The position numbers and the translations under genes were made by a program. The notes under the pieces were generated by a model. That model was not told where the DNA came from and made no database searches. It was given only the letters and a program-made list of their open reading frames with translations. A stretch of 64,000 nt of DNA, from NCBI GenBank assembly GCA_944382715.1, contig CALWNC010000001.1:304496-368495 (forward strand), read 5' to 3'. Source of the stretch: an uncultured Clostridia bacterium. GTDB lineage: Bacteria > Bacillota > Clostridia > Christensenellales > UBA1242. Positions 21,355 to 38,779 of this stretch are shown in pieces. Position 1 is the first letter of the stretch. Every line of letters starts with the position of its first letter.

Positions 21355-21705
21355 TTAAACATTTTCTTTTATAGTATCGCTAACTTCTGTAACAATACCA
21401 ACAAATTTTGACCATGTGCTAGGGAAGAACATCATAAGCACAACAAGAGCAATCATAACATAGAAAATAATTCTAAATACGATGTGCTTGTCAGCCACAA
21501 ATTCAATTCCAACAAGAGCAACAACAATAAGAGGGGCAAATGTCTTAATAATGTTTAAAACATTCATAATAAATGAGCCTTCTGGAATGAATGGCACTTG
21601 TGCATTAATGCAAAGAACAAGATAAGCAATAACAGTAACAACAGCAGCAATACACCCTATTACGTCAAAAATTTGTCTTCTTACTTCTCTACTATTATCT
21701 ACCAT
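21355..21705 (-). CDS. small 3-TM membrane protein
   Basis: AAGGAG RBS, hydrophobic, terminator hairpin at 21321-21346. Confidence 0.7.
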   Translation of the reverse strand: MVDNSREVRRQIFDVIGCIAAVVTVIAYLVLCINAQVPFIPEGSFIMNVLNIIKTFAPLIVVALVGIEFVADKHIVFRIIFYVMIALVVLMMFFPSTWSKFVGIVTEVSDTIKENV

Positions 21706-21838
21706 AATTTTAATCTCCTTATTTATTACTCCAATAATACCACATTAAAATTTTATTTGTCAATAAAATGAAAAGCAAATAAAGAAATTTCTTTTTGAGT
21801 TTTTTGTTACAAAAAAATGGTAGTTGCATATAATATAT

Positions 21839-21964
21839 TAGACTTGACAAAGTTCAAGTCTACTACACAAAAGAAGAACGCTACAAATTTTTCAAATAAT
21901 AAATCTCTTTTCCTTAAAACTTTACTCTTCAATGCAAAGGCGTACGCCTTTGCATTTTTATTTT
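21839..21964 (+). ncRNA. candidate ~120-nt small RNA
   Basis: TATAAT at 21829-21834, 5' hairpin at 21839-21862, perfect 26-bp palindrome at 21931-21956 plus T-tract, no ORF. Confidence 0.4.
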
Positions 21965-21985
21965 GGTATTACATATAATATATTT

Positions 21986-22108
21986 ATGAGAGAAAATAAT
22001 AAAAATAACCTTTATACATGTGAAACTAACAGAATTGACCAAAATTTAAGAAAATTTGTCAAACAAAAAAGAATAAGCGTAATTAACAAACACAGAAACA
22101 AAACTTAA
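21986..22108 (+). CDS. possible leaderless 40-aa basic peptide
   Basis: TATAAT 6 nt upstream of the ATG; MRENNKNNLYTCETNRIDQNLRKFVKQKRISVINKHRNKT. Confidence 0.25.
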   Translation: MRENNKNNLYTCETNRIDQNLRKFVKQKRISVINKHRNKT

Positions 22109-22438
22109 AACAAAGCCACCACAAATTTCCAAATAAAATCTTTTTTATTGAGCAAAATTAATTTAATAAATATAGAAGATTAAAGATAAAAATTTACCAT
22201 TATAAAAACATTTCCAATTAATATAAAAATAAATTTTTATTTGCATTTTTTATGCAAGATTTTTACTTTAAAATAAAGTATTATTAGATATCAATGTATT
22301 TTTTTATTTTTTTTCATATAAAAAGAGCTTAAAATCTAACATAGAAATACTTAAGCTCTTTTTATTAACTTAAATTTTGAATATCACTTGTAGATTACTA
22401 TAAATATTGGGGCAGTTAAAATTTAAAGTACTGCCCCA

Positions 22439-23665
22439 TCAGGCGACAGCGTTTTCTGGAAGCGTACGATTTGCCTTAAACCAATCGGTATCTTTCAAAA
22501 CTGTATCATTGTTTGAACACATAACAATGGTATCGTTACTTCCCGTCGAACAAATTGTTATATTACCATTAAACGATTCAAACTGATTTGAAGAGTAATC
22601 TATACAAAGTGTCGTAACATATATTCGAGAAGTGTAGATTGAAACATTGTCAATAAACTCCTGCGTTGGAAATTGGTTCTCATTTTTTGTAGTGTACTCA
22701 CTACTTCCCGCAACACAGCAAACTACGACTATTTTTGGCTGAATTACTGCCATAAGTTTAGCAGAGGAAGAAGTTTTTGAACCGTGATGACCTGCCTTAT
22801 AAAGCTCTACACTTGAAAGTTTTCCTGAATTTCTTTCATCGTCAACCAAAGATTCTTCCCCATCTTTTTCAAGGTCGCCGGTAAATAAATACTTCTTTGT
22901 TCCCTGAATTATTTGAAAGCACACTGAAAAATTATTTTCAGTCGTAGTTTCAAGTTTGCCCTGACTAGTATAAAATTTTGTATACAAAATTTGAAGCCAA
23001 ATTGTATTGCCGTCACTATCAGTGCCAAGGTCATACATACTCTGAGCTTGAAAACCTTGATAGTTAATAGTTTCTTCACTGCATTCAAGAGCCGTGAAGT
23101 GTTTTGCACCACTAGTGGTTGCTTCGCCAAGCTCTCTTAGATAGTTTGAATGCATATTTGCCGTGTCTGACTTTCTAGTCTGAGCAAATGTTATAATTGT
23201 TCCAATTGACTTTCCATTAGTTCCATCATTTCTATAGTGGTCAAACAAACTTTCAGTAGTGGCATTTGTTGCGTATCCTGCATAGTGGTCCTCATGGGCA
23301 TGTGTAATAATTATGTAATCCATTACATCGTCCGTCATAAACTCATCAACATAACTAGTTATGGTTGAAACACTGCTAGTCTTTGAACCACCATCAATCA
23401 AAATATCTGTGTCGCCAACTTTAATATAAATGCAATCTCCCGTGTACTTGTTTCCAAGTTCTAAAAAATGGATTGATAAATCACTATTTGAAATTACTCC
23501 TGCGTCAGGAGTGCCTGATACAACACTACTAGATGACGAAACCTTTGAAGGAATTTTGTAAGAATCGGGTAAACTTACAAAAATGTTGCCTACAACGCCA
23601 ACAGCAAATCCAACAATAAAGCAAATAAGTGAAACGAAGAATATTTTAATTTTACTACTGCGCAT
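22439..23665 (-). CDS. membrane-anchored MBL-fold metallohydrolase (ComEC C-terminal/Rec2-like)
   Basis: GD..YI, IDGG, THAHEDH, NFS, LFTGD and GHHGS motifs; N-terminal TM. Confidence 0.82.
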   Translation of the reverse strand: MRSSKIKIFFVSLICFIVGFAVGVVGNIFVSLPDSYKIPSKVSSSSSVVSGTPDAGVISNSDLSIHFLELGNKYTGDCIYIKVGDTDILIDGGSKTSSVSTITSYVDEFMTDDVMDYIIITHAHEDHYAGYATNATTESLFDHYRNDGTNGKSIGTIITFAQTRKSDTANMHSNYLRELGEATTSGAKHFTALECSEETINYQGFQAQSMYDLGTDSDGNTIWLQILYTKFYTSQGKLETTTENNFSVCFQIIQGTKKYLFTGDLEKDGEESLVDDERNSGKLSSVELYKAGHHGSKTSSSAKLMAVIQPKIVVVCCVAGSSEYTTKNENQFPTQEFIDNVSIYTSRIYVTTLCIDYSSNQFESFNGNITICSTGSNDTIVMCSNNDTVLKDTDWFKANRTLPENAVA

Positions 23666-24416
23666 CGTCTTCCCCCCTTAAAACAATAATGTTTCTAATA
23701 AGTTTTACCGTGCTATATTTCTTTGACGGAGCCGTGTAGACTGCATAGTAAATTCCCTCTACACTTGTATCAACCCCATCAACTTCTACTTCGTCCATAG
23801 AAAGATCATTGCGATAATAATAGGTAACTTTAAATTCATCTGAGCAGTCCCTGCCAAAGGCAACACAATTAACTCCGAGTTCTCTATAATACTGATACTC
23901 CTCGTCCTGACCAATGACAATATCTGCTTCACCATTGTCATAGCAAACCATAGCATAGACATCGTTTTTGCAAATTATATGGGCAGTAAAAAAACCACCA
24001 AGTGCACCTATTAATAAAAAGAAGATTGAAAATGCCAAGATAAGTGCTTTTTTTGATTTTTTTGATGATGAAGAAGTCTTTTTCTTTTTTGATTTTGTGT
24101 TTGATGTGATATTAGCCACATCTTTAAGTGTGCTCACAGTCGTTTCAAAAAAAGAATTGTCTGGCTTCTTTGTTTTTGATGATTTAGAAGAAGTCCTCTT
24201 TTTTGTAGTACTACTTGATTTTCCACTAGACGACTTTGAAGTCGTCTTTTTTGATGCACTATTAGTTTTCTTTGTACTGCTTGACTTTGAAGATGAACTT
24301 GTTGATTTTTTTGAAGTGCTTTTGCCTTGAGAAAGACCTGAAGCCAAAGAACTTATTGCATCTTTAGCTGATTCTGACTTACTCGTTTTTGTGGCTTTCA
24401 TTTCTGAATAATCCAT
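23655..24416 (-). CDS. Ser/Lys-rich single-pass membrane protein with an Ig-like C-terminal domain
   Basis: Low-complexity S/K/T N-terminus, one TM, C-terminal VDTSVEGIY..VY...R.I.V Ig-like signature; overlaps the MBL gene. Confidence 0.7.
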   Translation of the reverse strand: MDYSEMKATKTSKSESAKDAISSLASGLSQGKSTSKKSTSSSSKSSSTKKTNSASKKTTSKSSSGKSSSTTKKRTSSKSSKTKKPDNSFFETTVSTLKDVANITSNTKSKKKKTSSSSKKSKKALILAFSIFFLLIGALGGFFTAHIICKNDVYAMVCYDNGEADIVIGQDEEYQYYRELGVNCVAFGRDCSDEFKVTYYYRNDLSMDEVEVDGVDTSVEGIYYAVYTAPSKKYSTVKLIRNIIVLRGEDDAQ

Positions 24417-24664
24417 TAGTTCCTCCTTTTATACACTTATAATATATTACAAATTCTCTCAAAAAGCAAAAAAAGAAACAAAAAAAATAACAAAAATTGA
24501 GTTTTTTGTTAATTTTATAATTTTTATGTCAAATTTTAACAAATTTTAAGTAATTTTGCATTTTTTTAAATTAATTTTTTACTATACTGCAAGGTTTAAA
24601 ATAATTTTTAAAAAACTTGCTTTTGTAAGGAACGAATAAATAACACAATTTTTATTTTCATTCT

Positions 24665-25110
24665 TTACAGTCCAATTAATCTTTTCCATAAAAACATTTC
24701 TTTAAGCTTTAATTTCATTCTACTTGCATACTCTTCTAAAATATTGTTAATTTCTGATTCATTTTGATAGAACATATCATCACAATCATTAAGCTTATTT
24801 ATTGCTTCTTCATTATCTACATCTTTATTTAAGACTAAATATGCGCCATATGCTTCTTTAAAATTATTTTTTAAATTTTCAGGCAAAATCTTTTCAATAG
24901 ATGCAATTTCTTTTTGTAAAATTCCTCTTTCTTCCATATTAGAAAAGTATTGGTCATGTCCACCATTATTAACTTCACTTTGATAGGTCATTAACTCTGC
25001 AAAAGGTGACTCTGCACGCTCTTCAGTCCAAAGGTCCCACATCTTATTCCATTTTTTTTGTTCGTCAGATAACTTTTCATTTTTTTCTTTAAACTATCAA
25101 AAATTTTCAT
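24665..25110 (-). pseudogene. DUF4375 (DMP19-like) protein, frameshifted in an A7 run near the N-terminus
   Basis: EVNNGGHDQYF motif; the GGAG-preceded ATG at 25110 is out of frame with the main ORF (24665-25042) by one base at the homopolymer 25080-25086. Confidence 0.55.
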
Positions 25111-25135
25111 AAAATAATACTCCAAAAAAATATTC

Positions 25136-26836
25136 TCAACTTAATAATATTTTATCATAAAGTGGCATTGTTAAGTATCCATTTAATTTCTTACTATAAT
25201 TTTGAATTATTTTAGAAACAATATCAATTTCTTCCGTCCAAACAAACCATTTTTCTACATAATCTTTTGCCATTAATACATCACCATCAATTTGAAGCCT
25301 GATAACTTCTTTCATTATTTGTTTTGTCGTTTGTTTGATTTTTTCAAAATCAAAAATTAATTTTCCCTGTTCATCAAAAGTTATTGACTTTGTCTTTATC
25401 ATTCTATTGACAATCATACATGATCTAACTTTATGTGGTTCGGTCAGAGATGGTTTTCCCTTTAAAAAGCTTGAGGCAAGACTTGTTACCATTATTTGCT
25501 TAGCCTGTTTTTCTGTAAAGAGTTTTTTTTCTACAAAATTATCCAAAAAAGCATACATTCCCATATCAGCCTTATACTCTTCAAGAATTGAAGTATACTT
25601 TCCAAGATTAACATTACTTGGACCAAGCGTATGAGTGTTTTCGTGGCAGATTGTTGCCCAATGGTCTGCTTCTGGGTAAAAATATTCATACTGACTGTCA
25701 GTTATTAGGTTTTTATAAAGTCTTCGATTTGTCTTTTTTCTAATTTGTCTATGATATACATTTCTTCTTCCACCACCTTTTTTTAATGAAAGTTTATCGT
25801 CATTTGGCAGATTTTGTGCAAGTACAATCCCTGCCCTGTATGCACCTTCTTCGCCAGTTAAAGAAATTATGTCAACATCGACAGCTGTTTGTGGAATGTT
25901 CCCTGAGGAAGAATTTCTCTCATACTCTTGCCTATAAGGCATATACTCTGCTTCTATTTCAGTTAATTTTTTAAGTTTATTTAAAAATTTAGTACCTCGT
26001 TTATTGACAATTCCAACTCTCGCTCCAAGCGAATCTTTACTATTAATATCAATGTCAAGTGCTTTAAGTCTATTGCAGAGTTTTTCATTTTCAAAAATTG
26101 TATTAGTCATTTGTTCGTCATAGTTTTCTCTTGTAATTGTAAATTCTAAATTAGACTTATCAAGCTTTGCCCATGCAATATCAGCTTTTGCATCAATCTC
26201 TATGTCAACACATCTAAGTGCCTGTGCTTGCAAATTTAAATACTCTGCAAACTCTTTATCCTCGCATAAATTTTTAGCTTGTTCAAGTTCTGCCGCAATC
26301 TCTTCAAACTCTGGAAAATAGTCGACATAATCAATTGAAGTTAATTTATCACCATTTCTTACGACAACTGTTCTTTGACTGAGAATGTTTTTAACTTCTT
26401 GAACTTCACCTTCATCAAGCATTTTATCTAAAATTTGATGAAATTCAAAAGGCTCCAAGTCTTCAGGATAAAATCCAAGTCCCGGGGTCTTTTTTAAACT
26501 CTTTGTTAGGACAATTTCATTACCCAGAGCATCAGGAGAAAAAGCGCCCTTTTGTGAATCAAATAATTTTTTTGTAAGGTATGCCTGTTTATTACCTTTT
26601 TCAATTTCTTGATTTAAAAAAGCTAAAAATTCTAAATTCTTATGATTATCAAGTTTTAGCCAAATTTGGTCAAACCATTTACTTGCCTTTACAAGATGAA
26701 AGATTACTTCTTTTTCACTACCTGTAAGTTTTTGGTACTCTGGGCTTGTATCTGACAAAAGCTTTATTTCTAAGTAGTGTTTTTTTGAAGTTCGCATGCT
26801 AAGTTCTTTAAGAGATAAATTTAAATTAAATGTCAT
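25136..26836 (-). CDS. peptidase M49 (dipeptidyl peptidase III-like)
   Basis: GFYPED, AQNLPND, HENTH zinc motif, EEYKAD. Confidence 0.8.
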   Translation of the reverse strand: MTFNLNLSLKELSMRTSKKHYLEIKLLSDTSPEYQKLTGSEKEVIFHLVKASKWFDQIWLKLDNHKNLEFLAFLNQEIEKGNKQAYLTKKLFDSQKGAFSPDALGNEIVLTKSLKKTPGLGFYPEDLEPFEFHQILDKMLDEGEVQEVKNILSQRTVVVRNGDKLTSIDYVDYFPEFEEIAAELEQAKNLCEDKEFAEYLNLQAQALRCVDIEIDAKADIAWAKLDKSNLEFTITRENYDEQMTNTIFENEKLCNRLKALDIDINSKDSLGARVGIVNKRGTKFLNKLKKLTEIEAEYMPYRQEYERNSSSGNIPQTAVDVDIISLTGEEGAYRAGIVLAQNLPNDDKLSLKKGGGRRNVYHRQIRKKTNRRLYKNLITDSQYEYFYPEADHWATICHENTHTLGPSNVNLGKYTSILEEYKADMGMYAFLDNFVEKKLFTEKQAKQIMVTSLASSFLKGKPSLTEPHKVRSCMIVNRMIKTKSITFDEQGKLIFDFEKIKQTTKQIMKEVIRLQIDGDVLMAKDYVEKWFVWTEEIDIVSKIIQNYSKKLNGYLTMPLYDKILLS

Positions 26837-26926
26837 AAAATCACCTTTTTATATATTTTTTGATGGAAAATTGCAGTTTTTTGCGATAGTAAATAAAAAA
26901 AGTATATCTTAAAAATATACTTTTAC

Positions 26927-27322
26927 TTATCTTTTTCCTTTGTTTCGCCTTATGATATTTAAGACAATACTTGAAATAAATAGGATAATAAAGATGATTG
27001 CCGTTACGCAGAAAAAAACTTGAAAAACTAAACACGAATTTGCAAGTTCTAAGTTATCATTATTTAGATAATGATTTCTTTCAGTTGTAAAAAACAAAAA
27101 GCCTAAAAAACATACAATACTCATCACTCCCACAAAGCCAAGAGCAGGAGTATAACTAAGCCTATAATTTAAATTCTCAAAAAAAATCTTAAATTTTGAC
27201 TTTGGCCTTTCATAGTAAATTGAATTGTCATTTGAACTTATTGTACTTGAAACCTCACTCTCTTCACTAATATTAGATTCATGGTTTTCAGTTTCTGTAT
27301 CCATTCGAGACTCTTCTGCCAT
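26927..27322 (-). CDS. hypothetical 2-TM protein
   Basis: GGGGGAG RBS before the ATG at 27322; two hydrophobic segments. Confidence 0.6.
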   Translation of the reverse strand: MAEESRMDTETENHESNISEESEVSSTISSNDNSIYYERPKSKFKIFFENLNYRLSYTPALGFVGVMSIVCFLGFLFFTTERNHYLNNDNLELANSCLVFQVFFCVTAIIFIILFISSIVLNIIRRNKGKR

Positions 27323-27479
27323 AACAATTCTCCCCCCCAAACTATCTATTTCAAAATTCGAATAATAAAATGTTAAATGTTCAATTTAGAAATATCAAAA
27401 TTTTATTCATAAAATTAATTGTAATAATTTTGTGATAAAAGATTTGAGTTTGCCCAATTTGAACAAATAATCAAATTAA

Positions 27480-28076
27480 CTAAATTTCTTTTCTGTCGTG
27501 AAGTGCCCTTGAAAGTGTTACTTCATCTGCGTATTCAAGCTCACTGCCAATAGAAATTCCCTGAGCTATTCTTGAAACTTTTATTTGAAGAGGCTTTAAA
27601 AGTTTTGCAATGTAAAGCGCTGTTGCCTCACCTTCAACATCGGGATTTGTTGCAAGTATAACTTCTTCCGTTTCATTATTACTTATTCTATCAAGCAGTT
27701 CTTTAATTCTAATGTCGTTTGGACCAATACCAGAAATTGGATTGATTGTTCCATGAAGAATATGATATTGCCCCTTAAATTCTCCCGTCTTTTCTATTGC
27801 CATAGCATCTTTTGGCTCTTTTACAACGCAAATAATTTTAGCACTTCTATCTCTGCAAATTTTACATGGTGAGCTATCAGTGTAGTTCCCACATATCTCA
27901 CAAAATGTTATTTTACTTTTCACGTCCATAATACTTGTAGCTAGATTTCTGGCATTTTCTTCACTAGTACGAATTATGTAATATGCATATCTTTCTGCCG
28001 TTTTCTTCCCAACTGCTGGCAATTTTGAAAATTCATTTATAAGTCTTGCAATTGGTTCAATTTTGTTTATGTCCAC
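27480..28076 (-). CDS. recR: recombination mediator RecR
   Basis: HhH LPAVGKKTA, C4 zinc finger, Toprim EVILATNPDVEGEAT. Confidence 0.96.
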   Translation of the reverse strand: MDINKIEPIARLINEFSKLPAVGKKTAERYAYYIIRTSEENARNLATSIMDVKSKITFCEICGNYTDSSPCKICRDRSAKIICVVKEPKDAMAIEKTGEFKGQYHILHGTINPISGIGPNDIRIKELLDRISNNETEEVILATNPDVEGEATALYIAKLLKPLQIKVSRIAQGISIGSELEYADEVTLSRALHDRKEI

Positions 28077-28396
28077 TAAATTAAGCCCCCAAGTGCACCG
28101 AGCTTACTCTGCTTCATTTCATCGGCTTTTGCTTTTGCATCGTTAAATCCTGCTATAATTAAATCCTCTAACATTTCAACATCATCGCTATCCACAACGC
28201 TACTATCAATGTGCAAGCCAACCATTTCAAATTTACCGTTAATTTCAACCTTAACCAGTCCACCACTAGCAGTTCCTTCAAAAATTGTATTATCTAACTC
28301 TTCCTTTGCACGCATTGCCTCTTCCTGCATTTTTTGTGCCTGACGCATCATTGCCTGCATATTATTTGCACCACCAAATCCACCAAATTTATTCAT
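28076..28396 (-). CDS. ybaB: YbaB/EbfC nucleoid-associated protein
   Basis: MQAMMRQAQKMQ, GGLVKV, DVEMLEDLI; located between dnaX and recR. Confidence 0.93.
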   Translation of the reverse strand: MNKFGGFGGANNMQAMMRQAQKMQEEAMRAKEELDNTIFEGTASGGLVKVEINGKFEMVGLHIDSSVVDSDDVEMLEDLIIAGFNDAKAKADEMKQSKLGALGGLI

Positions 28397-28519
28397 ATTA
28401 ACTCCTTTAATAAATATTATTTAAACTAGTTATAGGCAAATCAAAAATTAATAGACCCAATTTTAAGTTTTGCCATAACTATTTTAATCAACAACTTAAA
28501 ATCATTATCTTTTGCCTGC

Positions 28520-28724
28520 TCTTACATTTTAGCAAAGTCACAATAAAGAAAAGACTTCCAAAAGGACTTATCTTTGTAAAATCCAAACTAAAAGTTTTGT
28601 TAAAAACTTTATCAGTTTTATTTTAAGCTACAAAAAGAACCATCAAGATAATTGCTTTTACCATTTGAAAACCATCAGGTGCCCTCCAAATGTGATTTCT
28701 CCACACTTGACAGCCACTTCTGAT
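28520..28724 (-). ncRNA. candidate structured leader RNA/ncRNA upstream of ybaB-recR
   Basis: Starts just after TTGAAA-16-TATAAT (28731-28758); 28633-28721 folds by eye into a four-way junction; further hairpins downstream. Confidence 0.4.
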
Positions 28725-28773
28725 ATTATTATTATAATGTCTTTTTATTTTTTTTCAAATCTTTTTTACATAT

Positions 28774-29316
28774 TTAATTAGTTTTGTCATCTGTTTTTAT
28801 AATTTTTAGTTTTCCACCAACTAGCGCGTTGAGTGTATCTTTATCGTCAACCTCGCTCAAGGCTGACTTTGGCTTAAAGCCCAGATTTTTTGAGTTGAAA
28901 AATCCTTCAAGTACTTCGGTGTAGTTACTCTTTGTAAATAATTCCTGAACCTCAATATCTTTATACTCAATTTCTGCAATTCCATTAATTATATTAATGC
29001 TTTCAATCTTACGACAAATCATAAGCATTGACATATACTTATTTTCTTTTAGAAATTTTAAGAGCTCACCTAAAATAACAATTCCTTCATCAATTTCGCT
29101 TTTTGAGGTGTCATCAAAAACCACGGTTTCTTCTTTAATTTTTTTTAACTCAGAATTTAATTCTTCCACAACATCATCAATATTTTCATTGTTTTGAGTG
29201 TTTTTTTTAATATTTTTAATATTTTTTGCAGTTTTTAAATCCGGGCTATTATCTGGGAAAAATATTATTAACTTTTTCTTCAAGTCTTTCAACTCTTTCT
29301 GCAAGTGAACTTGCAT
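28774..29316 (-). CDS. probable DnaX tau C-terminal portion, in the +1 frame overlapping the dnaX 3' end
   Basis: 68-nt overlap with dnaX; no RBS; low-complexity linker followed by a compact domain ending L..LVGGKLKI, at the position expected for tau domains IV/V. Confidence 0.6.
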   Translation of the reverse strand: MQVHLQKELKDLKKKLIIFFPDNSPDLKTAKNIKNIKKNTQNNENIDDVVEELNSELKKIKEETVVFDDTSKSEIDEGIVILGELLKFLKENKYMSMLMICRKIESINIINGIAEIEYKDIEVQELFTKSNYTEVLEGFFNSKNLGFKPKSALSEVDDKDTLNALVGGKLKIIKTDDKTN

Positions 29317-30391
29317 TTATAATTTTTATTATGGCACATTCAAGTACAATTCTCGGCTTTGAGCTATAGCGAAGTTCCTGTTCAACTTTGCTTAAAATTT
29401 CTATTGAACTAACAATCTTACTATAATTTTCCTGTGTTGCTTGGGCTTTCATTTTCTCAAATACATCATCTTTTACTACAACAATCTCTCTAGATTTTTC
29501 TTTAAGTGACCAAATAAGTAGTAAATCTCTTAAATACGCAATCAAGTCATTTGATAGAACTAAAGGACTTTTACCACTTGAAAGTACGCTGTCAAGTTCC
29601 GTTAAACACTTGCCAAGATTTTTTTCTAAAATGAGATTTGTAAGATTTATCATAACATCTCGTTTAGAAATTCCAAGCACATCAATAACGCTTTGATAAG
29701 TTAGTTTATCACCCGCAAATGAAACACATCTATCTGCTATTGACAAGGTATCTCTGACGCTACCCTCTCCTGCTCTTGCCAAAACATTAATACTTTCACT
29801 ATCATAGCTTATATTTTCTTCCTTTAGAATTTTCTCAAGCAGCATTGAAAGGTCTTCAAGAGATACTAGTTTAAAGTCAAAGCGCAAACACCTTGAAAGA
29901 ATTGTTGCTGGAAGTTTATGAACTTCTGTAGTTGCTAAAATAAATACCGTGTGGCTTGGTGGTTCTTCAAGTGTTTTTAGCAGTGCATTAAAGGCACTTG
30001 ATGAAAGCATATGAACTTCATCAATTATATAAACCTTATATTTCCCAACTACAGGTGGATACTTAACCCTTTCCCTAAGTTCACGAATTTCATCAACCCC
30101 ATTATTAGAAGCGGCATCAATTTCAAGAACATCAACATTGGTCTTTTCAAGTGCCTTACATACTTCGCACTCACAGCAAGGCGAGCCATTTACAGGGTGC
30201 AAGCAATTAATAGCTCTTGAAAAAATTTTTGCCGTGCTTGTCTTACCAGTGCCCCTACTACCCGTAAACAAATAAGCGTGGGATATTCTATCCGTTTTGA
30301 TTTGATTGATAAGAGTCTTTACTATATGCTGTTGCCCAATTACCTTATCAAATGTATTTGGACGGTATTTTCTGTAAAGAGCTAAATACAT
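29249..30391 (-). CDS. dnaX: DNA polymerase III clamp loader subunit gamma/tau (gamma-length, 380 aa)
   Basis: LYRKYRP, GSRGTGKT, zinc module, IIDEVHML, NALLKTLEEPP, SRC. Confidence 0.96.
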   Translation of the reverse strand: MYLALYRKYRPNTFDKVIGQQHIVKTLINQIKTDRISHAYLFTGSRGTGKTSTAKIFSRAINCLHPVNGSPCCECEVCKALEKTNVDVLEIDAASNNGVDEIRELRERVKYPPVVGKYKVYIIDEVHMLSSSAFNALLKTLEEPPSHTVFILATTEVHKLPATILSRCLRFDFKLVSLEDLSMLLEKILKEENISYDSESINVLARAGEGSVRDTLSIADRCVSFAGDKLTYQSVIDVLGISKRDVMINLTNLILEKNLGKCLTELDSVLSSGKSPLVLSNDLIAYLRDLLLIWSLKEKSREIVVVKDDVFEKMKAQATQENYSKIVSSIEILSKVEQELRYSSKPRIVLECAIIKIINASSLAERVERLEEKVNNIFPR

Positions 30392-30448
30392 ATAAAATCT
30401 CCTTTTTTTAATGTTTTTTAGTTAAAATTAATAAAAATTGCGTTTTTT

Positions 30449-31012
30449 TTAACCAGCTTTATTTAGTTTTGATTTTATTCGTTGCAAGGTATTGTCTATT
30501 TGTTTTACTTGTTTATTTAATGAAACTGCAATTTCCGACTGTTTTTCGCCTTCAAGATAATGTTTAAGAACTTTTTTTTCAAATTCGCTCAGTTCACTTT
30601 CACAGATTTTGAGTTTCTCTTCAATTTTTTCTTTATCAATAAAAATGTCTAAGGGGTCATTTGATAAATTTCTATCAAACATCATATCCAGCATTGATTT
30701 TTCATTCCCACTTTTATCAATACCATTAAAGCTTATTGACTCGTTCAAGATTTTATTTTTTTGATTGTTAGACTTTCTTATGGCATCTAGGATTTGTCTT
30801 TTTATACAAAGCTTAACAAATGAATTAAACCTCTCTTCAAAAAGACTCTCCCCATTATAATTCTTACAAGCCTGCAAAATTCCAATTACACCCTCTTCAA
30901 ACAAATCATCACCAGTGCCATCTTTTACATAGTATCTTTTACTTAAATAGCTTACATATGGCGAATATTTTTGCACGATTTTAACTATATCGCCCGGGTC
31001 AACATTTTCCAA
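30449..31012 (-). CDS. sigH: RNA polymerase sigma-H-like factor
   Basis: DDLFEEG, CIKRQILDAI, K.LN.SIS, KQIDNTLQRIKSKL; follows rlmB as in Firmicutes; TTG start. Confidence 0.85.
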   Translation of the reverse strand: MENVDPGDIVKIVQKYSPYVSYLSKRYYVKDGTGDDLFEEGVIGILQACKNYNGESLFEERFNSFVKLCIKRQILDAIRKSNNQKNKILNESISFNGIDKSGNEKSMLDMMFDRNLSNDPLDIFIDKEKIEEKLKICESELSEFEKKVLKHYLEGEKQSEIAVSLNKQVKQIDNTLQRIKSKLNKAG

Positions 31013-31013
31013 T

Positions 31014-31739
31014 TTACTTTCTCCTTTGTCTTATTACTTCATAAATTCCTATGCCTGCACTTACACTTGCATTGAGTGAATTAACCTTGCCAAACATTGG
31101 TATGCTTATTATTCCGTCACAAATTTTTCGCGTCAGTTTACCAACACCATTGCCTTCACTGCCAACAACAAGTGCAATATCTCCAGTCAGCGAGGCACTA
31201 TACATCTCTTCACCGTCCATATCAAGTGCATAAACCCAAATATTTTCTTTTTTTAAGGTTTCGATTGCATTATTTATGTTATTAACTTTTATTATTGGCA
31301 GATAAGCCGTTGCACCAGCAGATGTTCTTACAACCGTTTCATTGACAGTTGCACTTCGCCTATTTGAAATAATCACTCCACTTGCGCCAGCACACTCTGC
31401 AACTCTAACAATTGAGCCTAAATTATGAGGGTCTAAAATTTCGTCAAGAATAACAAACAAAATATCCTTACCCTTTTCCCTTTCAGACGCAATGACTTCT
31501 TTTAAGTTAAAGTACTTATAATTATTTTGCTCAGCAATTACTCCTTGATGATGTCCCGTTTGCGAAATTTTATCCAAACCTCTCTTATCAACAAATTCAA
31601 CTTTAATGCCTCTTTCTCTAGCAAGCTTTTGAATTTCTCTGAGGTCACCATCAGAATTTCCGTTTTCTATCATAATTTTCTCAATAGTTTCATCGCTATT
31701 TAAAAGTTCTTTAACTGGATTTTTACCTTCTATTTTCAT
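31014..31739 (-). CDS. rlmB: 23S rRNA (G2251-2'-O)-methyltransferase
   Basis: HQGV, DPHNLGSI.R.A, GSEGNG and SLNASV SPOUT motifs. Confidence 0.93.
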   Translation of the reverse strand: MKIEGKNPVKELLNSDETIEKIMIENGNSDGDLREIQKLARERGIKVEFVDKRGLDKISQTGHHQGVIAEQNNYKYFNLKEVIASEREKGKDILFVILDEILDPHNLGSIVRVAECAGASGVIISNRRSATVNETVVRTSAGATAYLPIIKVNNINNAIETLKKENIWVYALDMDGEEMYSASLTGDIALVVGSEGNGVGKLTRKICDGIISIPMFGKVNSLNASVSAGIGIYEVIRQRRK

Positions 31740-31882
31740 AAATTTTATGTTCCCCTCAAAATTTATATATAATTTATAAAAGCCTAATTTATATAAAACT
31801 AGATTAAACTTAAAGAAAAGTTTTTAATAAGTTTAATTCTTAAATGCAAAGTTTATTCTAACTAAGTCTTTCCAAAAAATAC

Positions 31883-32287
31883 CTAATCAATAACCATTTC
31901 ATCTAGAGATTTGATTAAAAATTTTTCTAGTCTTTCATCTTCTCCAACAAGATATAAATATCCAATGATTGCTTCAAATGCCGTTGCATAAATGTATTCA
32001 GTTATTGTAAAATTTTTTGCCTTTGAATGAATATGGGTGTTTCTTGCCCTATGTGCAATCTCCAATTCATCTTCTAAAAGGTTTTCTTCTATTTTTTTAA
32101 ATGTAACAAATTGTGCCCCAGCCTTAACAACACTCGACACAATCTTATTTAACTTATTAACTTTGTAGTTATATGATTTTGCAAGATACTCTCTTACGAA
32201 AAGTGTTTGCACACTGTCTCCAATCATTGCAAGAACCAAGGGTTGCATTTGCTTTGCTTCCTGTTTACTAATTGTTTTCTTTATCAT
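31883..32287 (-). CDS. mrnC: Mini-ribonuclease III
   Basis: LAMIGDSV, RARN, Y..ATAFEAIIGYLYL. Confidence 0.9.
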   Translation of the reverse strand: MIKKTISKQEAKQMQPLVLAMIGDSVQTLFVREYLAKSYNYKVNKLNKIVSSVVKAGAQFVTFKKIEENLLEDELEIAHRARNTHIHSKAKNFTITEYIYATAFEAIIGYLYLVGEDERLEKFLIKSLDEMVID

Positions 32288-32563
32288 AAGTCACCAACTT
32301 AATTTATTATAGCATTTATTTAAAATTTTAGCAATGATAATTTAACTAAGTTTACCTTAACAATTAAACTATTATACAGTCTTTAACAATTTAAGTTTAT
32401 CTTTAATTCAATGAAGTTTCTTAAGGAAAATTAATTTTTTTGTTTTTAGCTTGTAAAACTAAAAAATCAAACTTATGACTTAAATTTTAAAAAAATAAAA
32501 ACGCAAAATATCAAATTTTTAATTGAAATTCTGCGTTTAATTGAATTTTTTTGAAGAATGAAA

Positions 32564-33970
32564 TTATTTGAGGATTTTTGTAAAATAATCAGATAAAATT
32601 GTTTCATATGAAACATTTTGAGTTTCTCCACTCTCACTTTCTCTACTTACAAAAATTTTTATTTGGTCGCCACTTTCTCCTGCAAGTAACAATTCTTTCA
32701 AGGTATAATTTCTAAGCAAATAATTTTGATAGTTATCATAAACTATTCCATTATATTCTAGTTTTATAATCTTATCCCCAACTTCAAGTCCTGAGTTTGA
32801 TAGTAAACTTTCTTCATCAATACTTGTAATTACTATGGTTTCACTTATCTTTATTGTTGATGTTCCTGAGTCGTAAATTGTCAGAGAATTTGTGGTTTCT
32901 AGGTTATCCTCTATTCCTGTGGAATAAATTGTAACTGAACTTTCACCACTACTTACTATATTTTCAGCAACTGCTTTAACAACATTTGCAGGAATTGCGT
33001 AATTCATAAGTGTTCCTTCTCTTCCACCATTTGTAAGACCAATTAGTTTTCCATATTCATCAAACAGTCCACCACCTGAATTCCCATGATAGATGTAAGA
33101 GTCGTGACGAATTTCACTATAATATGAAGAAACCCCACCAACATTCATTGAAATTGTTTCGCGTTCAACGCTAATAATTCCCTGAGTTACAGTCAAGCCA
33201 TACTCACTAGTATTGCCAATTGCATAACATGTTTGACCAAGGCTCACATTTTGCAAGCTAAAATCAACTACCTGAGCATTTGAATTTTTTAAAGCTTCAC
33301 TACCTTCAACCTTTAAAATAGCTATGTCATAGCTTCTTATTCCACCTAGATATGTTGCCTCAATTTCTATATCTGGTTGTCCAAACAAGTAAAGTTTGAA
33401 ATAAGGATACATATTTCTACTAGACGAATTGTATGTCACATGGTAATTGGTAATAATATATGCATCACCATTATCATCTATCCTATAAATAATTCCTGAA
33501 CCTGCATTTAAATAATTTGCATAAGGTGAATTTGATGTATATCCATAAACTTCCACAACACTCATCAAATTTTTATTTAAATAACTTCCACTCGTTATTG
33601 AACTATTTGCAAAAAATCTACTTAGGAAGTCTAAATATGTATAATTTTCATCAATTTCTTCATTTTCTTTAGCTGACAAATATGCCTGATAGGTATCAAT
33701 ATTTTGTGTTTCAGCATCTTTACCATTTTGACCCTGCAAACTCAAAAGCCATTCCTGCTCTGTTCCAGTAAATCCATTTTTCACAGCTATCTCATACGCA
33801 CTTTCTCCCCGTAAACTCAAAAGCCATTCTTGCTCTGTCCCAGTAAATCCGTTTTTCACAGCTATCTCATACGCAGACTGCGAACCACAAGATGTGAGCA
33901 CTAGGCAAAGTGGAAGGACAAATGCAAAAAGCATTATAGAAATTAATGTTTTTAATCTGTTTTTTTTCAT
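32564..33970 (-). CDS. HtrA-like S1C serine protease with PDZ domain, lipoprotein
   Basis: Lipobox LTSC; catalytic triad TNYH / DIA / GNSGG; C-terminal PDZ (GLEVGDKII). Confidence 0.85.
   Translation of the reverse strand: MKKNRLKTLISIMLFAFVLPLCLVLTSCGSQSAYEIAVKNGFTGTEQEWLLSLRGESAYEIAVKNGFTGTEQEWLLSLQGQNGKDAETQNIDTYQAYLSAKENEEIDENYTYLDFLSRFFANSSITSGSYLNKNLMSVVEVYGYTSNSPYANYLNAGSGIIYRIDDNGDAYIITNYHVTYNSSSRNMYPYFKLYLFGQPDIEIEATYLGGIRSYDIAILKVEGSEALKNSNAQVVDFSLQNVSLGQTCYAIGNTSEYGLTVTQGIISVERETISMNVGGVSSYYSEIRHDSYIYHGNSGGGLFDEYGKLIGLTNGGREGTLMNYAIPANVVKAVAENIVSSGESSVTIYSTGIEDNLETTNSLTIYDSGTSTIKISETIVITSIDEESLLSNSGLEVGDKIIKLEYNGIVYDNYQNYLLRNYTLKELLLAGESGDQIKIFVSRESESGETQNVSYETILSDYFTKILK
33738..33875. 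repeat. 63-bp direct repeat (75-bp period) encoding SAYEIAVKNGFTGTEQEWLLSL twice
   Basis: Copies at 33738-33800 and 33813-33875 differ only at a few synonymous positions. Confidence 0.9.
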
Positions 33971-34434
33971 TATTCCTCCTGCAAATTTAACAACTTTTCT
34001 AATATAAAAATACCCTAAAAAGTAATTAATACTAATTTAAAATGTATAAGTTTGTTAAATTATTCTTCTATTATTATCTAACTACAATGCAAAGCACAAA
34101 TTGAAAGCTTTTTACTATAAAGTAATTTTTAGATTGGTTAGTTTTGTTAGAAAATTTATTAACAATTTTATTATAACATTTTTTTTATATAAGTAAAACA
34201 AAAAGATACAAAATTAGTATTTGTATCTTTTATTAATTTATTGTTAAAAATTACAAAATCCATAATGTTTGGTTTTTTCTACATTTTTTTGTAGTTAAAT
34301 GCTCATAATTACAGTAAATTGTATTGCTAAAAATTTTTAATATACATTTTAAGATTATAAAATCTCTAATCTTAGCGTTTTACTGTTTTTATTTACTATA
34401 AAAACGATCATTTTGACTAGAAATTTTATTTTTG

Positions 34435-36102
34435 TTATTTTAAACTGCTTATTACAAACTCAAGTCTATTTAAAACTTCTTCTTTACCTAAAAGTTTTAT
34501 AATTTCATATAAGTCTGGAGTATTAGTTCTGCCTGTGATTGCCACGCGGACAATATTACTCGCATCTGCAATGTTTCCTTTATAAGACTCCGGTGACTGT
34601 TTATATGTCTTCATATCGGCATATCCACACACAAAAGCACATTGTTTTAAAGTATCAAACCACTGCTCTTTACTTTCGTCTAAGTTTAGTACTTTTACAT
34701 ACTCTTTTAAAAGATTAACTATATCCGACTTACTATATTTGTCATCAAACACCAAACTAGTACTGTTATCGTAAAATTCATTAAACATATAACAAAAAAG
34801 TCGCTTAACTTCGCTAAAGTGTCCAATATCTTTTCTTGGTCTTGCGTTTTCTCTATCAATCGCAAGCAGTCTTTCTGCCATTTCTTGATGTGCAAGTAAA
34901 ACTTTTGCTAGCTGTGTATCGTATTCATTTGCCCAATCCACAATTTCTCTCAGAAGCTTTTTAGCAGGTACTTTCGAGATTATATTCTTTGAAATGTCAT
35001 TTATTTTAACTAAATCGAACATTGGGTTGCTTGAAGATATCTTTTTGATTGAAAATGGAAAATCAGTATAAGGAAGATCAGGGTTTGCCTTTCTCCAATT
35101 TTCAAAATCTGAGTTTAAAAGATTTAACAAATACTCATTTATTGCAACTGTTGGATATCCCTCTGCAATAAAATATCTTGTATCGGCTTCAGGGTCATAT
35201 CGCTTACTGAGTTTTCGCTTTGTTCCAGTTTTTTCATCAATCTTACAAACAACTGGGGTATGTGCGTACTTTGGAGGCTTAATTCCAAGTGCTCTAAAGA
35301 TTTCCAAGTGAGCATTTAATGATGGCCACCATTCTTCTCCTCGAACAACAATACTGGTGTGCATTAAAGTATCGTCAATAACATGTGCAAATGCATATGG
35401 TGGAATACCATTACTCTTCATAAGAACAATATCTTTTGCATTTTCGTGAAGTGTACGCTTTCCCTTTATTAGATCAGTAAACTCGTAAGTTTTTTCTGGA
35501 TCACCATTTGAGTATAACCTAAGAGCCCAAGGCTTGCCCATTTTTAAATTAAGTTCAATTGTTGCTATGTCAAGATTTCTGCAAGGGTCTTTATCTATAA
35601 TTTCATCGGACTCTTCAAGTTGTTTCTCTCTTCTAATTTTTATATCTTCCTTGCCTTCACTTGCATTACAAAAACAAGGAAATGCCCTACCAAGTTCCAC
35701 CATTCGTTTTGCAAACGCCGTGTAAATTTCTTGTCTTTTAGACTGAACATAGTCACCATACTCTCCCACTTGCTTTTTGCCCTCACCCATAAAACCCTCA
35801 TCGGGCTTTGTGTTAAACTTGCAAAGCATATTATAGGCAACATCTGCAGCACCCGGAACTTGTCGTTTTTGATCAGTATCTTCTATTCTGAGATAAAAAA
35901 TGCCATTTGTTTTTAATGCCACTAATTTATCTATCATTGCACCAAAGAGTCCACCAGTATGATAGTAACCCGTTGGGCTTGGTGCAGTTCTCGTAACCTC
36001 TGCCCCCGGTGCTAGATTTCTTTCAGGGTACTTTTCAAAAAAGTATTCAGGGGTGAGTGTTACATTTTTATAAAGCATTTCTGCCAGTCGTTTATAATCC
36101 AT
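34435..36102 (-). CDS. gltX: glutamate--tRNA ligase
   Basis: RTAPSPTG..HTGG (HIGH), LRIEDTD, VRGEEW, KLSKR (KMSKS); ATG after GGAG. Confidence 0.93.
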   Translation of the reverse strand: MDYKRLAEMLYKNVTLTPEYFFEKYPERNLAPGAEVTRTAPSPTGYYHTGGLFGAMIDKLVALKTNGIFYLRIEDTDQKRQVPGAADVAYNMLCKFNTKPDEGFMGEGKKQVGEYGDYVQSKRQEIYTAFAKRMVELGRAFPCFCNASEGKEDIKIRREKQLEESDEIIDKDPCRNLDIATIELNLKMGKPWALRLYSNGDPEKTYEFTDLIKGKRTLHENAKDIVLMKSNGIPPYAFAHVIDDTLMHTSIVVRGEEWWPSLNAHLEIFRALGIKPPKYAHTPVVCKIDEKTGTKRKLSKRYDPEADTRYFIAEGYPTVAINEYLLNLLNSDFENWRKANPDLPYTDFPFSIKKISSSNPMFDLVKINDISKNIISKVPAKKLLREIVDWANEYDTQLAKVLLAHQEMAERLLAIDRENARPRKDIGHFSEVKRLFCYMFNEFYDNSTSLVFDDKYSKSDIVNLLKEYVKVLNLDESKEQWFDTLKQCAFVCGYADMKTYKQSPESYKGNIADASNIVRVAITGRTNTPDLYEIIKLLGKEEVLNRLEFVISSLK

Positions 36103-36245
36103 AATTTTCTCCAAAATAATTTAAATTTAAAGTTTTTTAATTTTTTTTATAAAAATATGCAGTTTTTTAATTGTGCGTTGCTATTTATTTATAGATTTAT
36201 ACCCACAAAAAACAAACTCAGATACACATTTCAAATATTTATTTA

Positions 36246-36839
36246 CTAATTTGTTTTTGGTTCATCTAAATATGTCGCCATTAAATCTGCAATGTGAGTT
36301 AGCGTTGCAAGTGGAAACTTATAGTAAGCAGATGAAAATGATAAATCGCCACCTTGAACTCTCTTGTCAAATCCACCCATATGCCAGTTTATCGCAATGG
36401 CCTCTTCTCTTGTAAGTCGCATATAACCATTAATGATATAAACAGATTTTTCACCATGTCCGTAAGGAAGAGGATCATCAATGGAATAATATGGCTTTTG
36501 AACCCACTCACCATTTTCCTTAACATTTCGCATTTCTATCTTATAAAAACAACATTTACAAATGTCATGAAATAGTGCCACTATTGTGATAGTTTCAAGA
36601 TTAACATTTTCATTTCCCCATTCGTTTATGGCAAGTTCTAGTAGTCTTTTATAAACATTTAACGAGTGTTTGCAAAGTCCTCCTGCTTCTGCCATGTGAA
36701 ATTTTGAGCTTGCTGGTGCATCAAAAAAATCGGTAGTGACTAACCAGTTCATAAGCTCATCTATTCCTTCTCTGTGGATATTATCCTTAACAAGTTTTAA
36801 AAATTCTTGCTTGTTATCTTCTTTCTGTTTATCGTCCAT
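36246..36839 (-). CDS. HD domain hydrolase
   Basis: APAS.KFH..GGL..HS, LFHDICK, GHGEKS, WHMG, HIAD. Confidence 0.85.
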   Translation of the reverse strand: MDDKQKEDNKQEFLKLVKDNIHREGIDELMNWLVTTDFFDAPASSKFHMAEAGGLCKHSLNVYKRLLELAINEWGNENVNLETITIVALFHDICKCCFYKIEMRNVKENGEWVQKPYYSIDDPLPYGHGEKSVYIINGYMRLTREEAIAINWHMGGFDKRVQGGDLSFSSAYYKFPLATLTHIADLMATYLDEPKTN

Positions 36840-36978
36840 AAATTCATATTATCACATTTTATTTTTAAAGTAAATTGTTTAAAAAAATATTTAAAACTTT
36901 AGACAATTAACTTATGAATATGTTTCGTAATGGGATATTTAAAGCATAAAAAAGCAAAGCTGTGTTTAGCTTTGCCAT

Positions 36979-37686
36979 TTATTTTATTTGTAAAAACTCA
37001 ACAATTCCTAGATATATACAGTTAATAATTTTTTCTTGATAGGCGTCCGTCAGTAAAAGTTTTTCGTCCTCTTCATTAGATAGAAATCCACACTCAACTA
37101 TTACTGATGGTGCAGTTGTACATTTAAGCATAAAATAATCACCCGGACTTGTTGTTTTGTTGCTGTGCTCTAAATTTTTTAGAAACTGTTTTTGAATATA
37201 CTCTGCAATTTGCTTACTAGTGTCACTGGTTTTATCATAAAAAACCTGAGCTCCTCTAAGTTTATGATTTGTATAAGAATTTTGATGCAAGCTTATAACC
37301 ATATTTGGTCGGACTTTTTTGATTAGTTCTTTCCTAAGTTCCATATCGCGTTTTTTAAATGCCTTTCCTGCTCCGTCTGCAAGGCTTGCATCGGTTTCTC
37401 TAGTCATTACGACATTTATACCTGCATCTTCTAACTTATTCTTTAAAAGTTTTGACATTTTAAGATTAAGTTCATCTTCGTGAACTTTTGTCTTATAACC
37501 AATTGAACCCGGATCCGTGCCTCCATGTCCCGGATCAATAACTACAGTATAATTTCTACTTGGTACCGTGTCGGTTGGTGTTGGGTTTTCCAATGCAAAA
37601 GCTATTTTACTTTGATAGTTATAAAAAATGCAAACCATAAGTAATGATAACAAAAAAATACTTAATTTGTTTATATATGTCTTCAT
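36979..37686 (-). CDS. N-acetylmuramoyl-L-alanine amidase (Amidase_3, CwlD-like)
   Basis: IDPGHGG.DPG, E..LNL, SLHQN, GAQVFY, IVECGFLSN. Confidence 0.88.
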   Translation of the reverse strand: MKTYINKLSIFLLSLLMVCIFYNYQSKIAFALENPTPTDTVPSRNYTVVIDPGHGGTDPGSIGYKTKVHEDELNLKMSKLLKNKLEDAGINVVMTRETDASLADGAGKAFKKRDMELRKELIKKVRPNMVISLHQNSYTNHKLRGAQVFYDKTSDTSKQIAEYIQKQFLKNLEHSNKTTSPGDYFMLKCTTAPSVIVECGFLSNEEDEKLLLTDAYQEKIINCIYLGIVEFLQIK

Positions 37687-37738
37687 ATTTCTTAGGTTGG
37701 CACTTTTATTGATTTTTATGCAATATTTTGGAAGATTT

Positions 37739-37754
37739 TGTTTCCCGTGGAACT
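37739..37754. promoter_or_regulatory. degenerate parS-like site
   Basis: TGTTTCCCGTGGAACT versus consensus TGTTTCACGTGAAACA. Confidence 0.45.
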
Positions 37755-37783
37755 TTTTATTTTTTAGTCGAAAGTAATTAAGC

Positions 37784-38779
37784 TTAGTTATTCATTTCAT
37801 TAGTAGTTTCTGGATTTGTATGAACCAAACAATGTTTTACGGTATCAATCTCACTTTCAATTTTATCATGCACCTTTTGTGCTATCTCATGAGACTCGAA
37901 AAGACTGATTCTCCCATCACAGGCAATTTCAACATCAATATAAACCATACTCCCAAAAAGTCTAGTCCTGAGTGAATCAATTCTCTCCACACCTTCAACG
38001 GATAACACAATTTCTTTAATTTTCTCTTGAATAGATTCTGGTGCAGATGTGTCCGTAACTTTTTTGACAGAGTCCATAAAAATGTCTATGGCAACTTTTA
38101 AAATAACAATACAAATTACAATTCCAGCCAAAACATCTAAGATACTTACCCCAAGCATTGCCCCCAAAATTCCAACAAAACTTCCAATAGACGAAAGCGA
38201 ATCGGATAAGTGATGCCACGCATCAGCTTTAAGTGCACCTGAATTTATTTTTTTAGCGACAATTCTTGTAACAATAAATAAAATTAGTTGCATTAAAATT
38301 GAAACAACTGCCGCAATTAATGCAATTAGTTTAGGGACCTCTTTTGTTAGATATTCGCCTGAGATTAAGCTTGAAACTGCGTCATAGCCAATTAAAAGTC
38401 CAACATCAAAAAGAACAAATGCTAAAATTAGTGCAGTGATACATTCAAATCTATCGTGACCATATGGGTGGCTTCTATCGGCTTTTTTTGCAGAGATTTT
38501 TACTCCTATTATTACAACCACTGTCGTAAGTACATCGGATATTGAGTGCACCGAATCTGCCACCATAGCATAAGATTTTCCAACAATGCCAGCAACCAAT
38601 TTAAAAACGGACAAAATGACATTTGACAAGATTGCAAGCATTGACACCCTAACTGCCGTTTTTTCATTTTGCTTTAACTTTCTAAATCTATGTTCATCAT
38701 TTTTATCATCAACAATTTCCGTAGAAATCGGCAAATATTTTTTCTTCATATCTTTCACCTGAAATTCAGTTTTTTTCAT
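37784..38779 (-). CDS. cation diffusion facilitator (CDF) transporter
   Basis: ADSVHSISD, HPYGH.RFE, ADAWHHLSD; alternative start at 38749. Confidence 0.92.
   Translation of the reverse strand: MKKTEFQVKDMKKKYLPISTEIVDDKNDEHRFRKLKQNEKTAVRVSMLAILSNVILSVFKLVAGIVGKSYAMVADSVHSISDVLTTVVVIIGVKISAKKADRSHPYGHDRFECITALILAFVLFDVGLLIGYDAVSSLISGEYLTKEVPKLIALIAAVVSILMQLILFIVTRIVAKKINSGALKADAWHHLSDSLSSIGSFVGILGAMLGVSILDVLAGIVICIVILKVAIDIFMDSVKKVTDTSAPESIQEKIKEIVLSVEGVERIDSLRTRLFGSMVYIDVEIACDGRISLFESHEIAQKVHDKIESEIDTVKHCLVHTNPETTNEMNN

Follow-up and report, generated by a model that had tools for sequence, protein, structure and literature searches.

A putative +1 frameshift at a rare proline codon separates the gamma and tau products of dnaX in a genus of uncultured Clostridia

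Known recoding of dnaX and known +1 sites

The tau subunit, which ties the clamp loader to the polymerase (Pol III), and its shorter form gamma are both products of dnaX. The part specific to tau, its C-terminal domain, binds the replicative polymerase and helicase. In Escherichia coli tau is read in the zero frame and gamma results from slippage, a -1 frameshift at A_AAA_AAG; in Thermus gamma is made through mRNA indels. Here we analyze dnaX in a 64,000-nucleotide (nt) stretch of DNA (positions 304,496 to 368,495 of contig CALWNC010000001.1, assembly GCA_944382715.1; hereafter the window) from an uncultured Clostridia bacterium of the order Christensenellales. The gene is the same and is divided at the same boundary, and here, too, one locus would give two products. 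However, polarity and direction are both reversed: the zero frame codes for gamma, and the C-terminal part of tau lies in the +1 frame, which ribosomes probably enter by a programmed shift at a UUU_CCC_A motif.

An inverted arrangement of this kind has been described before. According to the passages on dnaX in Antonov et al. 2013 (NAR 41:6514, PMC3711429), a ‘novel type’ of the gene, in which tau needs recoding, comprises 17 genes from 12 genera; all 17 are of the -1 type at the DNA level and 12 have poly-A. The corresponding passage of a later review (Atkins et al. 2016, PMC5009743) restates the reversed two-ORF (open reading frame) dnaX. As in those genes, the zero frame of the window gene codes for gamma, the stop codon is located at or just after the putative site, tau would be produced by recoding and the same domain boundary is involved. 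In contrast to the -1, mostly poly-A sites of the published set, the window genus has the +1 relation in 19 of 19 loci, no A-run and a rare proline codon. Judged against those passages (PMC3711429), the inverted layout is not new, and the +1 direction and the CCC site are. A search of literature full text, with subscription-only papers and supplements outside its coverage, turned up no +1 dnaX.

The classic +1 cassette is that of prfB, coding for release factor RF2, where a Shine–Dalgarno (SD) element and a 3-nt spacer precede CUU_UGA_C. The window dnaX resembles prfB in being a chromosomal housekeeping gene whose full-length product would arise by a +1 slip in the P site. Unlike prfB, it has neither an SD-like element nor a stop codon adjacent to the slipping codon. 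In the same genome, prfB (C1:193608-194666, L201) is an uninterrupted frame of 387 codons, with a match to its family model at positions 2-353, and so RF2 of this organism, unlike its DnaX, would appear to do without the classic +1 frameshift.

The closest match in codon order is E. coli pheL, for which the relevant sections of Gurvich et al. 2011 (PMC3082878) give a Phe-dependent +1 shift of 15% at UUC_CCC_UGA (E, P and A sites), UUU being equal to UUC in effect. Both pheL and the window dnaX have a Phe codon for the E site and CCC for the P site, where tRNA-Pro slips, or would slip, by +1. However, the A-site codon of pheL is UGA and the shift was judged incidental in the same sections (PMC3082878), whereas dnaX has a sense codon (AGN) in that position, its stop follows one codon later and the shift would serve an essential protein. 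The E. coli tRNA-Pro(UGG) is characterized, in the part of PMC4519876 that deals with it, as pairing weakly with CCC and as naturally shift-prone. Utilized +1 shifts at CCC_UGA are listed in the section of PMC5009743 on Listeria phages PSA, A118 and A500, as is the PSA cps site ACA_CCC_(UCC), where a sense codon comes next. That section also credits bacterial ribosomes with employing pseudoknots for +1 shifting, with the same two references as for the phages (PMC5009743). The phage hosts described there and the organism studied here are alike as low-GC Firmicutes with CCC making up about 5% of proline codons, and in both cases the longer product has, or in dnaX would have, an added C-terminal part. 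The phage sites, however, belong to structural genes, whereas dnaX is chromosomal, and at the dnaX site no RNA structure is predicted by RNAalifold.

The +1 break, its conservation and the downstream domain

The host genome is a 1.61-Mb metagenome-assembled genome (MAG) in 19 contigs, in which a single dnaX was found. Its 3' end reads GAA GAA AAA GTT AAT AAT ATT TTT CCC AGA TAA (coordinates of this and other features are given in Table 1). All three Pfam domains expected of the clamp-loader part (PF13177, PF22608 and PF12169) match the zero-frame product, the DNA_pol3_gamma3 match corresponding to residues 231-370. The family models also score above their curated cut-offs, with 533 bits for NF004046 (PRK05563; cut-off 400; profile positions 1-380 of 567) and 452 bits for TIGR02397 (cut-off 250). 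DnaX thus has its AAA+ domains I-II and domain III, and ends directly after the latter. This agrees with the initial annotation of the window, made from its letters alone, which had placed the stop after 380 amino acids (aa) just past domain III; the details it quoted (the 3'-terminal codons, the ATG at 29316 and a 6-bp hairpin) were all found correct when the sequence was read again. It had also described an ORF in the +1 frame that opens 68 nt upstream of this stop and codes for a linker and a compact domain, and the ORF map, alignment and structure prediction agree.

To see how far the arrangement extends, we used the window genome and 20 other genomes of its genus, which together provided 19 dnaX loci. 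A homologue of the +1 ORF, likewise in the +1 frame, is present in 18 of the 20 other genomes; both exceptions are incomplete genomes (56% and 85%). One of them, G018, has no dnaX match either, and the other, G012, was outside the search with the DnaX N-terminus. The +1 relation between dnaX and the downstream ORF is identical in all 19 loci, the window copy included, and the zero frame ends at residue 379-381 in 18 of them and at 386 in the remaining one. Every locus has TTT CCC AGN, followed directly by TAA or TAG in 18, which places the zero-frame stop one codon past CCC; in G014 it comes five codons after TTT CCC AGN. The +1 frame opens just 14-71 nt ahead of the zero-frame stop (14 nt in five species), and in G014 a +1-frame stop is present two codons (3 nt) ahead of UUC. 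With stops in both frames bounding the interval, the change of frame is confined to N_UUU_CCC_AGN_stop.

The nucleotide sequence at this point is far better conserved than elsewhere in the gene. In a codon alignment of the 19 genes, whose proteins are 71-79% identical to that of the window, the 8-nt TTTCCCAG is invariant throughout and is the only invariant run of at least 6 nt besides the first six nucleotides of the gene. Only 8 of the 174 columns with an invariant residue also keep an invariant codon. The proline column of the putative site has CCC in 19 of 19 genes; at the nine other conserved proline columns CCC accounts for 1 of 171 codons. In neither frame are the flanking residues constant (R/S in the zero frame, D/V/A in the +1 frame). 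As the genomes are related, these counts are not independent, and yet the site clearly stands out from the remainder of the gene. In this alignment the synonymous sites of the putative shift motif are evidently under selection at the nucleotide level. A search for TTTCCCAGNTAR elsewhere in the genus genomes found it about as often as a reversed control and revealed no second gene with the signal; the other copy in the window genome is antisense, within an ORF that, from its translation, we take to be fmt.

The break is not an assembly error. The initial annotation had called for a check of the raw reads across 29250-29320 and for an alignment of dnaX from related genomes. Contigs from four sequencing runs of four other studies span the junction with substitutions but with no indel at the site, and the relatives, as described above, share the break. 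One strain (run X9, another study) lacks 9 nt of the linker, in frame, at window position 29204, which fits a spacer that tolerates changes of length and is nevertheless translated. In a quickly computed maximum-likelihood tree based on DnaX residues 1-360 (71 rows, without five duplicate genus loci and one row whose alignment start was truncated) the 19 genes with the +1 break form one clade (Shimodaira–Hasegawa-like approximate likelihood ratio test value 99), which is nested among genera with continuous tau.

Aligned with each other, the 19 products of the +1 frame combine a K/N/E-rich linker that differs from one to the next with a domain of about 95 aa that is conserved and has the motif LLGELL..LR..K.MS.LM.CRQI...FF..KGL.FK...LLGGKL.IK. 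The relationship of this domain to tau, which the initial annotation had proposed to examine by profile comparison, was established by hhalign against a profile of 26 continuous tau C-termini from sister genera and the order (99.7%, E 2e-26, 103 columns). BLASTP of the +1 ORF against tau of a sister genus (L075) gives E 3e-17. If CCCA is read as one step, a 538-aa trans-frame protein results, which aligns with the 500-aa tau of a sister genus in a single high-scoring segment pair (530 columns, 54% identical residues). With this protein, the match to PRK05563 reaches profile position 508 of 567. By sequence comparison, therefore, the +1 ORF is the tau C-terminal domain, that is, an extension homologous to that of full-length tau. 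Pfam, NCBIfam and PDB searches with the +1 ORF or the genus alignment gave nothing significant. The AlphaFold2 model of the +1 product has a predicted local distance difference test score (pLDDT) below 50 over model residues 1-53 (the linker) and above 90 in the domain. Foldseek found no match for the C-terminal domain in the PDB at E <= 0.001. In VIA-align the domain matched 4tps_D (DnaA domain I; Z 8.5, root-mean-square deviation (rmsd) 2.6, 78 aligned residues), an alpha/beta arrangement (KH or DnaA domain I-like) within the range the tool calls common, and showed a weak likeness to E. coli tau, chain 5fku_E (Z 4.2, rmsd 3.0, 68 aligned). Comparisons of the modelled fold neither help nor hurt its identification as tau.

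Table 1. Coordinates of dnaX features in the window and +1 sites at dnaX ends elsewhere in the family
Feature	Position or locus	Strand	Description
dnaX zero-frame ORF	30391..29249	minus	380 aa + TAA stop; clamp-loader domains I-III; gamma-length default product
Codons at dnaX end	TTT 29260-29258, CCC 29257-29255, AGA 29254-29252, TAA 29251-29249	minus	
Proposed +1 shift cassette UUU_CCC_AGA_UAA	29249..29260	minus	invariant TTTCCCAG, stops in both frames, CCC bias
+1-frame ORF, stop to stop	29316..28774	minus	180 codons; overlaps dnaX by 68 nt; would supply tau residues 380-538
K/N/E-rich linker of trans-frame tau	29095..29254	minus	alignment variable and gappy; predicted disordered
Compact tau C-terminal domain	28810..29094	minus	~95 aa; pLDDT >90; hhalign and BLASTP homology
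6-bp hairpin TGCAAG-TTCA-CTTGCA	29315-29300	minus	adjoins ATG 29316-29314; probably incidental
+1 site, G146	L093		GGUG UUG CCC UAG
+1 site, G216	L120		GGUG AAG CCC UGA; +1 frame opens 5 nt ahead of stop
+1 site, G226	L108		GGUG UCG CCC UAA
+1 site, G230	L102		GGGGUG CGU CCC UGA
+1 site, G175	L094		GGUG UUA CCC AGU UGA
Site by motif, G170	L105		GGUG-NNN-CCC-UGA at dnaX end
Site by motif, G190	G190:C9:3191-3203		GGUG-NNN-CCC-UGA at dnaX end

Proposed mechanism and rival explanations

We consider a programmed +1 ribosomal frameshift at the UUU_CCC_A motif of dnaX the probable explanation (roughly 80%). Standard translation would end at UAA and give a 380-aa gamma-like clamp-loader subunit with the C-terminus VNNIFPR. 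A fraction of ribosomes would shift by +1 on UUU_CCC_A when the P-site tRNA-Pro (UGG), weakly paired to the rare CCC, re-pairs with the overlapping CCA. Translation would then continue with GAU AAU AGC into the linker and C-terminal domain of a 538-aa tau, for which we predict the junction peptide ...VNNIFPDNSPDLK. The invariant Phe ahead of Pro probably stimulates the shift, either through the nascent peptide or from the E site, in the manner of E. coli pheL. The same protein would result if tRNA-Phe slipped from UUU to UUC while the rare CCC awaited decoding in the A site, and the two routes are indistinguishable here; CCC is favoured as the core of the shift by the comparison with other genera (see below), since it is the element common to all +1 dnaX designs in the family. 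The initial annotation had put forward much the same scheme, namely gamma by default and a tau of about 540 aa through a +1 event at UUU_C or CCC_A, and its account is supported by the conservation in the genus, the homology of the domain and the collinear 538-aa product. The -2 slippage that it had offered as an option was dropped, as no tRNA at UUU, CCC or AGN re-pairs two bases back.

Codon usage and tRNA genes are in line with this scheme. In the window genome CCC makes up 5% of proline codons and, at 1.23 per 1000, is the fourth rarest sense codon. Among 39 tRNAs, ARAGORN found one tRNA-Pro, with the anticodon UGG, and the overlapping +1 codon of the CCN type with which it could re-pair is provided by the invariant CCC_A. 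No tRNA with the anticodon UGGG or GAAA, which might suggest four-base decoding, was found in this genome by ARAGORN. A tRNA-like call of the same program at C8:57994-58070, adjoining tRNA-Thr(GGU), has eight nucleotides in its anticodon loop (GGCA, Ala or Cys). It has three acceptor-stem mismatches, may be a pseudo-tRNA and matches neither CCCA nor UUUC. That the event is ribosomal, and where exactly it would occur, we infer from the sequence observations listed so far.

Several points weigh against a frameshift on these codons. The A-site codons AGA, AGU and AGC are common in the genome (20.8, 20.9 and 6.5 per 1000), neither stop nor rare, and thus leave ribosome slowing unaccounted for. There is no SD-like element upstream of the site, where the sequence is A/T-rich in the genus, and RNAalifold, applied to the 19 sequences from -30 to +100 around the site, found no conserved structure (0 pairs predicted). 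The window genome has ten further in-frame TTT_CCC_A heptamers in ORFs of at least 150 aa, none of them followed by G, and so the heptamer alone cannot shift efficiently. EF-P and TrmD, suppressors of +1 slips on tRNA-Pro, are both encoded. The scheme does not account for the invariant G that follows CCCA or for a GC-rich, semi-conserved patch located 5-9 nt beyond the stop, which may be the missing stimulator. Finally, a second tRNA-Pro could have been missed, since the MAG lacks part of its tRNA set (for Ser, a single tRNA was found).

The initial annotation had allowed for a genuinely two-piece tau, in which the 380-aa DnaX and a separate C-terminal domain, translated by its own initiation or by termination-reinitiation, would associate non-covalently. 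The break does fall at the boundary between domain III and the linker, where a split could be tolerable. Moreover, there may be a precedent in another genus: in G297 (L112, G297:C3:4370-5880) the tau C-terminal ORF opens past the TAG of dnaX, after AGGTGA-GAA-GTG, and tau may be truly split there, with an SD and a GTG start of its own. In the window species the +1 ORF begins with an ATG (29316-29314), which the initial annotation had singled out as the only early one and as lying in a hairpin. Both are present as described. However, both are peculiar to this species, and the genus as a whole does not keep the +1 frame open at that point; neither being conserved, the ATG and the hairpin are immaterial, and the hairpin is probably incidental. 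None of the ATG, GTG or TTG codons of the 19 +1 ORFs is conserved, and no position common to them has an SD ahead of it. The earliest such codon in five species comes only 138-192 nt downstream of the motif, shortly before the conserved domain or within it. This absence of a start codon or SD common to the 19 species disfavours a two-piece tau. Nor does a simple gene boundary explain why an 8-nt motif with a rare codon is kept at synonymous positions. In addition, the linker after the site is collinear with that of continuous sister genes, FPAK just past the site in the trans-frame reading corresponding to TLPAK, so that the genus gene looks as though a single C had been added to the Pro codon of a sister gene. 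We therefore regard separate translation of the two parts as quite unlikely.

The frame could instead be restored at the RNA level if polymerase slippage or editing at TTTCCC dropped one base or added two, some mRNAs then coding for tau continuously. Slippage makes the Thermus dnaX products and has been proposed for poly-A two-ORF dnaX in the passages of PMC3711429 and PMC5009743 on such genes, and most genera of the family do have runs of A6-A10 at the boundary. Yet the window genus has no such homopolymer; its runs are T3-T5 and C3, as against the roughly 7-10 nt cited for slippage in those passages (PMC3711429, PMC5009743). The rare CCC, the A that follows it and the Phe before Pro instead fit re-pairing of a tRNA, which makes an RNA-level change very improbable. 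Finally, gamma might be the only product, the downstream ORF being a decaying remnant or having another role, or the break might be an artefact, as indels next to homopolymers are a frequent type of error. This we find scarcely credible: the break recurs in 19 independent assemblies of different species as well as in the contigs of four further studies, for 138-180 codons beyond the site, in an AT-rich genome, the +1 ORF has no stop, and its domain is conserved, and the gene is the sole dnaX copy in a genome that would otherwise lack the tau link between clamp loader and polymerase. A programmed +1 frameshift on Phe-CCC-A is thus the reading that we retain.

Other dnaX designs in the family and implications

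The dnaX loci examined comprised sets of 19, 29, 29 and 40. Across the order, dnaX frames are mostly continuous, at about 495-760 aa. Of the 150 matches listed for the family, 95 are short (open frames of 364-410 aa) and 55 are long (480-600 aa). The nearest genera (61-70% identity) mostly have a continuous tau; one of them, g110 (L071-L078), has an A9-10 run inside it, as in Thermus, and two have TCA_AAA_AAC with a stop directly after it (or one codon later in G171) and tau in the -1 frame. We then selected 40 rows with short frames, from 39 genomes and so as to cover genera, and scanned the gene ends with the tau C-terminal profile. The domain was found at 37 of the 40. In 31 of these it is in the -1 frame after an A6-A10 run, typically A_AAA_AAA_AAC with a stop, which is the type of Antonov et al. 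2013. In five it is in the +1 frame (Table 1), and the remaining one is G297, the candidate split gene described above. The three loci without a domain match are two short pieces and G105.

The GGUG-NNN-CCC-stop arrangement found at these other loci (in G175 with AGU between CCC and the stop) mirrors the layout of prfB, where SD, three bases, slippery codon and stop follow one another. By sequence comparison, the window genus is a variant of this design, in which Phe replaces the SD and the stop has moved one codon on. A family-wide pattern search for GGTGNNNCCCTRR returned mostly noise and was used just to locate sites adjoining dnaX.

Some further loci deserve mention. Reversed -1 genes with an A-run occur in the family and in one other family of the order (L081-L119, 31 loci; L025, L027, L033, L034, L049, L068 and L073). 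G173 (L100), a congener of G297, has UUA_AAA_AAU_UAA and tau in the -1 frame. In G105 (L109), from another family of the order, dnaX ends with TCT CCC AGG CAA TGC TGA, and a 253-codon +1 ORF there is unmatched by the tau profile; this is possibly another site of the CCC_AG type with a divergent C-terminus.

Downstream of dnaX in the window are ORFs which, from their translations alone, we take to be ybaB (28396..28076) and recR (28076..27480), the customary partners of dnaX. The presumed ybaB is separated from the end of the tau ORF by a 377-nt A/T-rich spacer (28397-28773), with no long ORF and no Rfam match at gathering thresholds; an Rfam search of window positions 20000-40000 likewise found nothing.

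Utilized +1 ribosomal frameshifts are very few among bacterial chromosomal genes, prfB being the classic one. In dnaX, an essential replication gene apparently relies on a +1 shift, with a signal composed of Phe-CCC-A and a sense codon in the A site, and with neither an SD nor a structure detected. The family offers natural variants at one and the same boundary, namely GGUG-NNN-CCC-stop (+1), an A-run (-1), a continuous frame and possibly a split gene, and thereby constitutes a ready comparative system for the rise and replacement of recoding signals. There is also a practical side, since annotation pipelines will call such genomes tau-less or their dnaX split, and a rule based on the motif would correct the dnaX calls of many gut MAGs.

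It is tempting to speculate that these gut Clostridia with small genomes, as a family, set their tau:gamma ratio by a tunable +1 shift on a Pro codon, a proposal that we make tentatively and consider unlikely on present evidence. If true, the composition of the replisome would respond to tRNA-Pro charging, to m1G37 modification or to EF-P activity and, in the genera with CCC-stop sites, to release-factor activity, as in the autoregulation of prfB. The lineage would then have swapped repeatedly among -1 A-run, +1 SD-CCC-stop, +1 Phe-CCC-A and continuous designs because selection acts on the two-product output itself.

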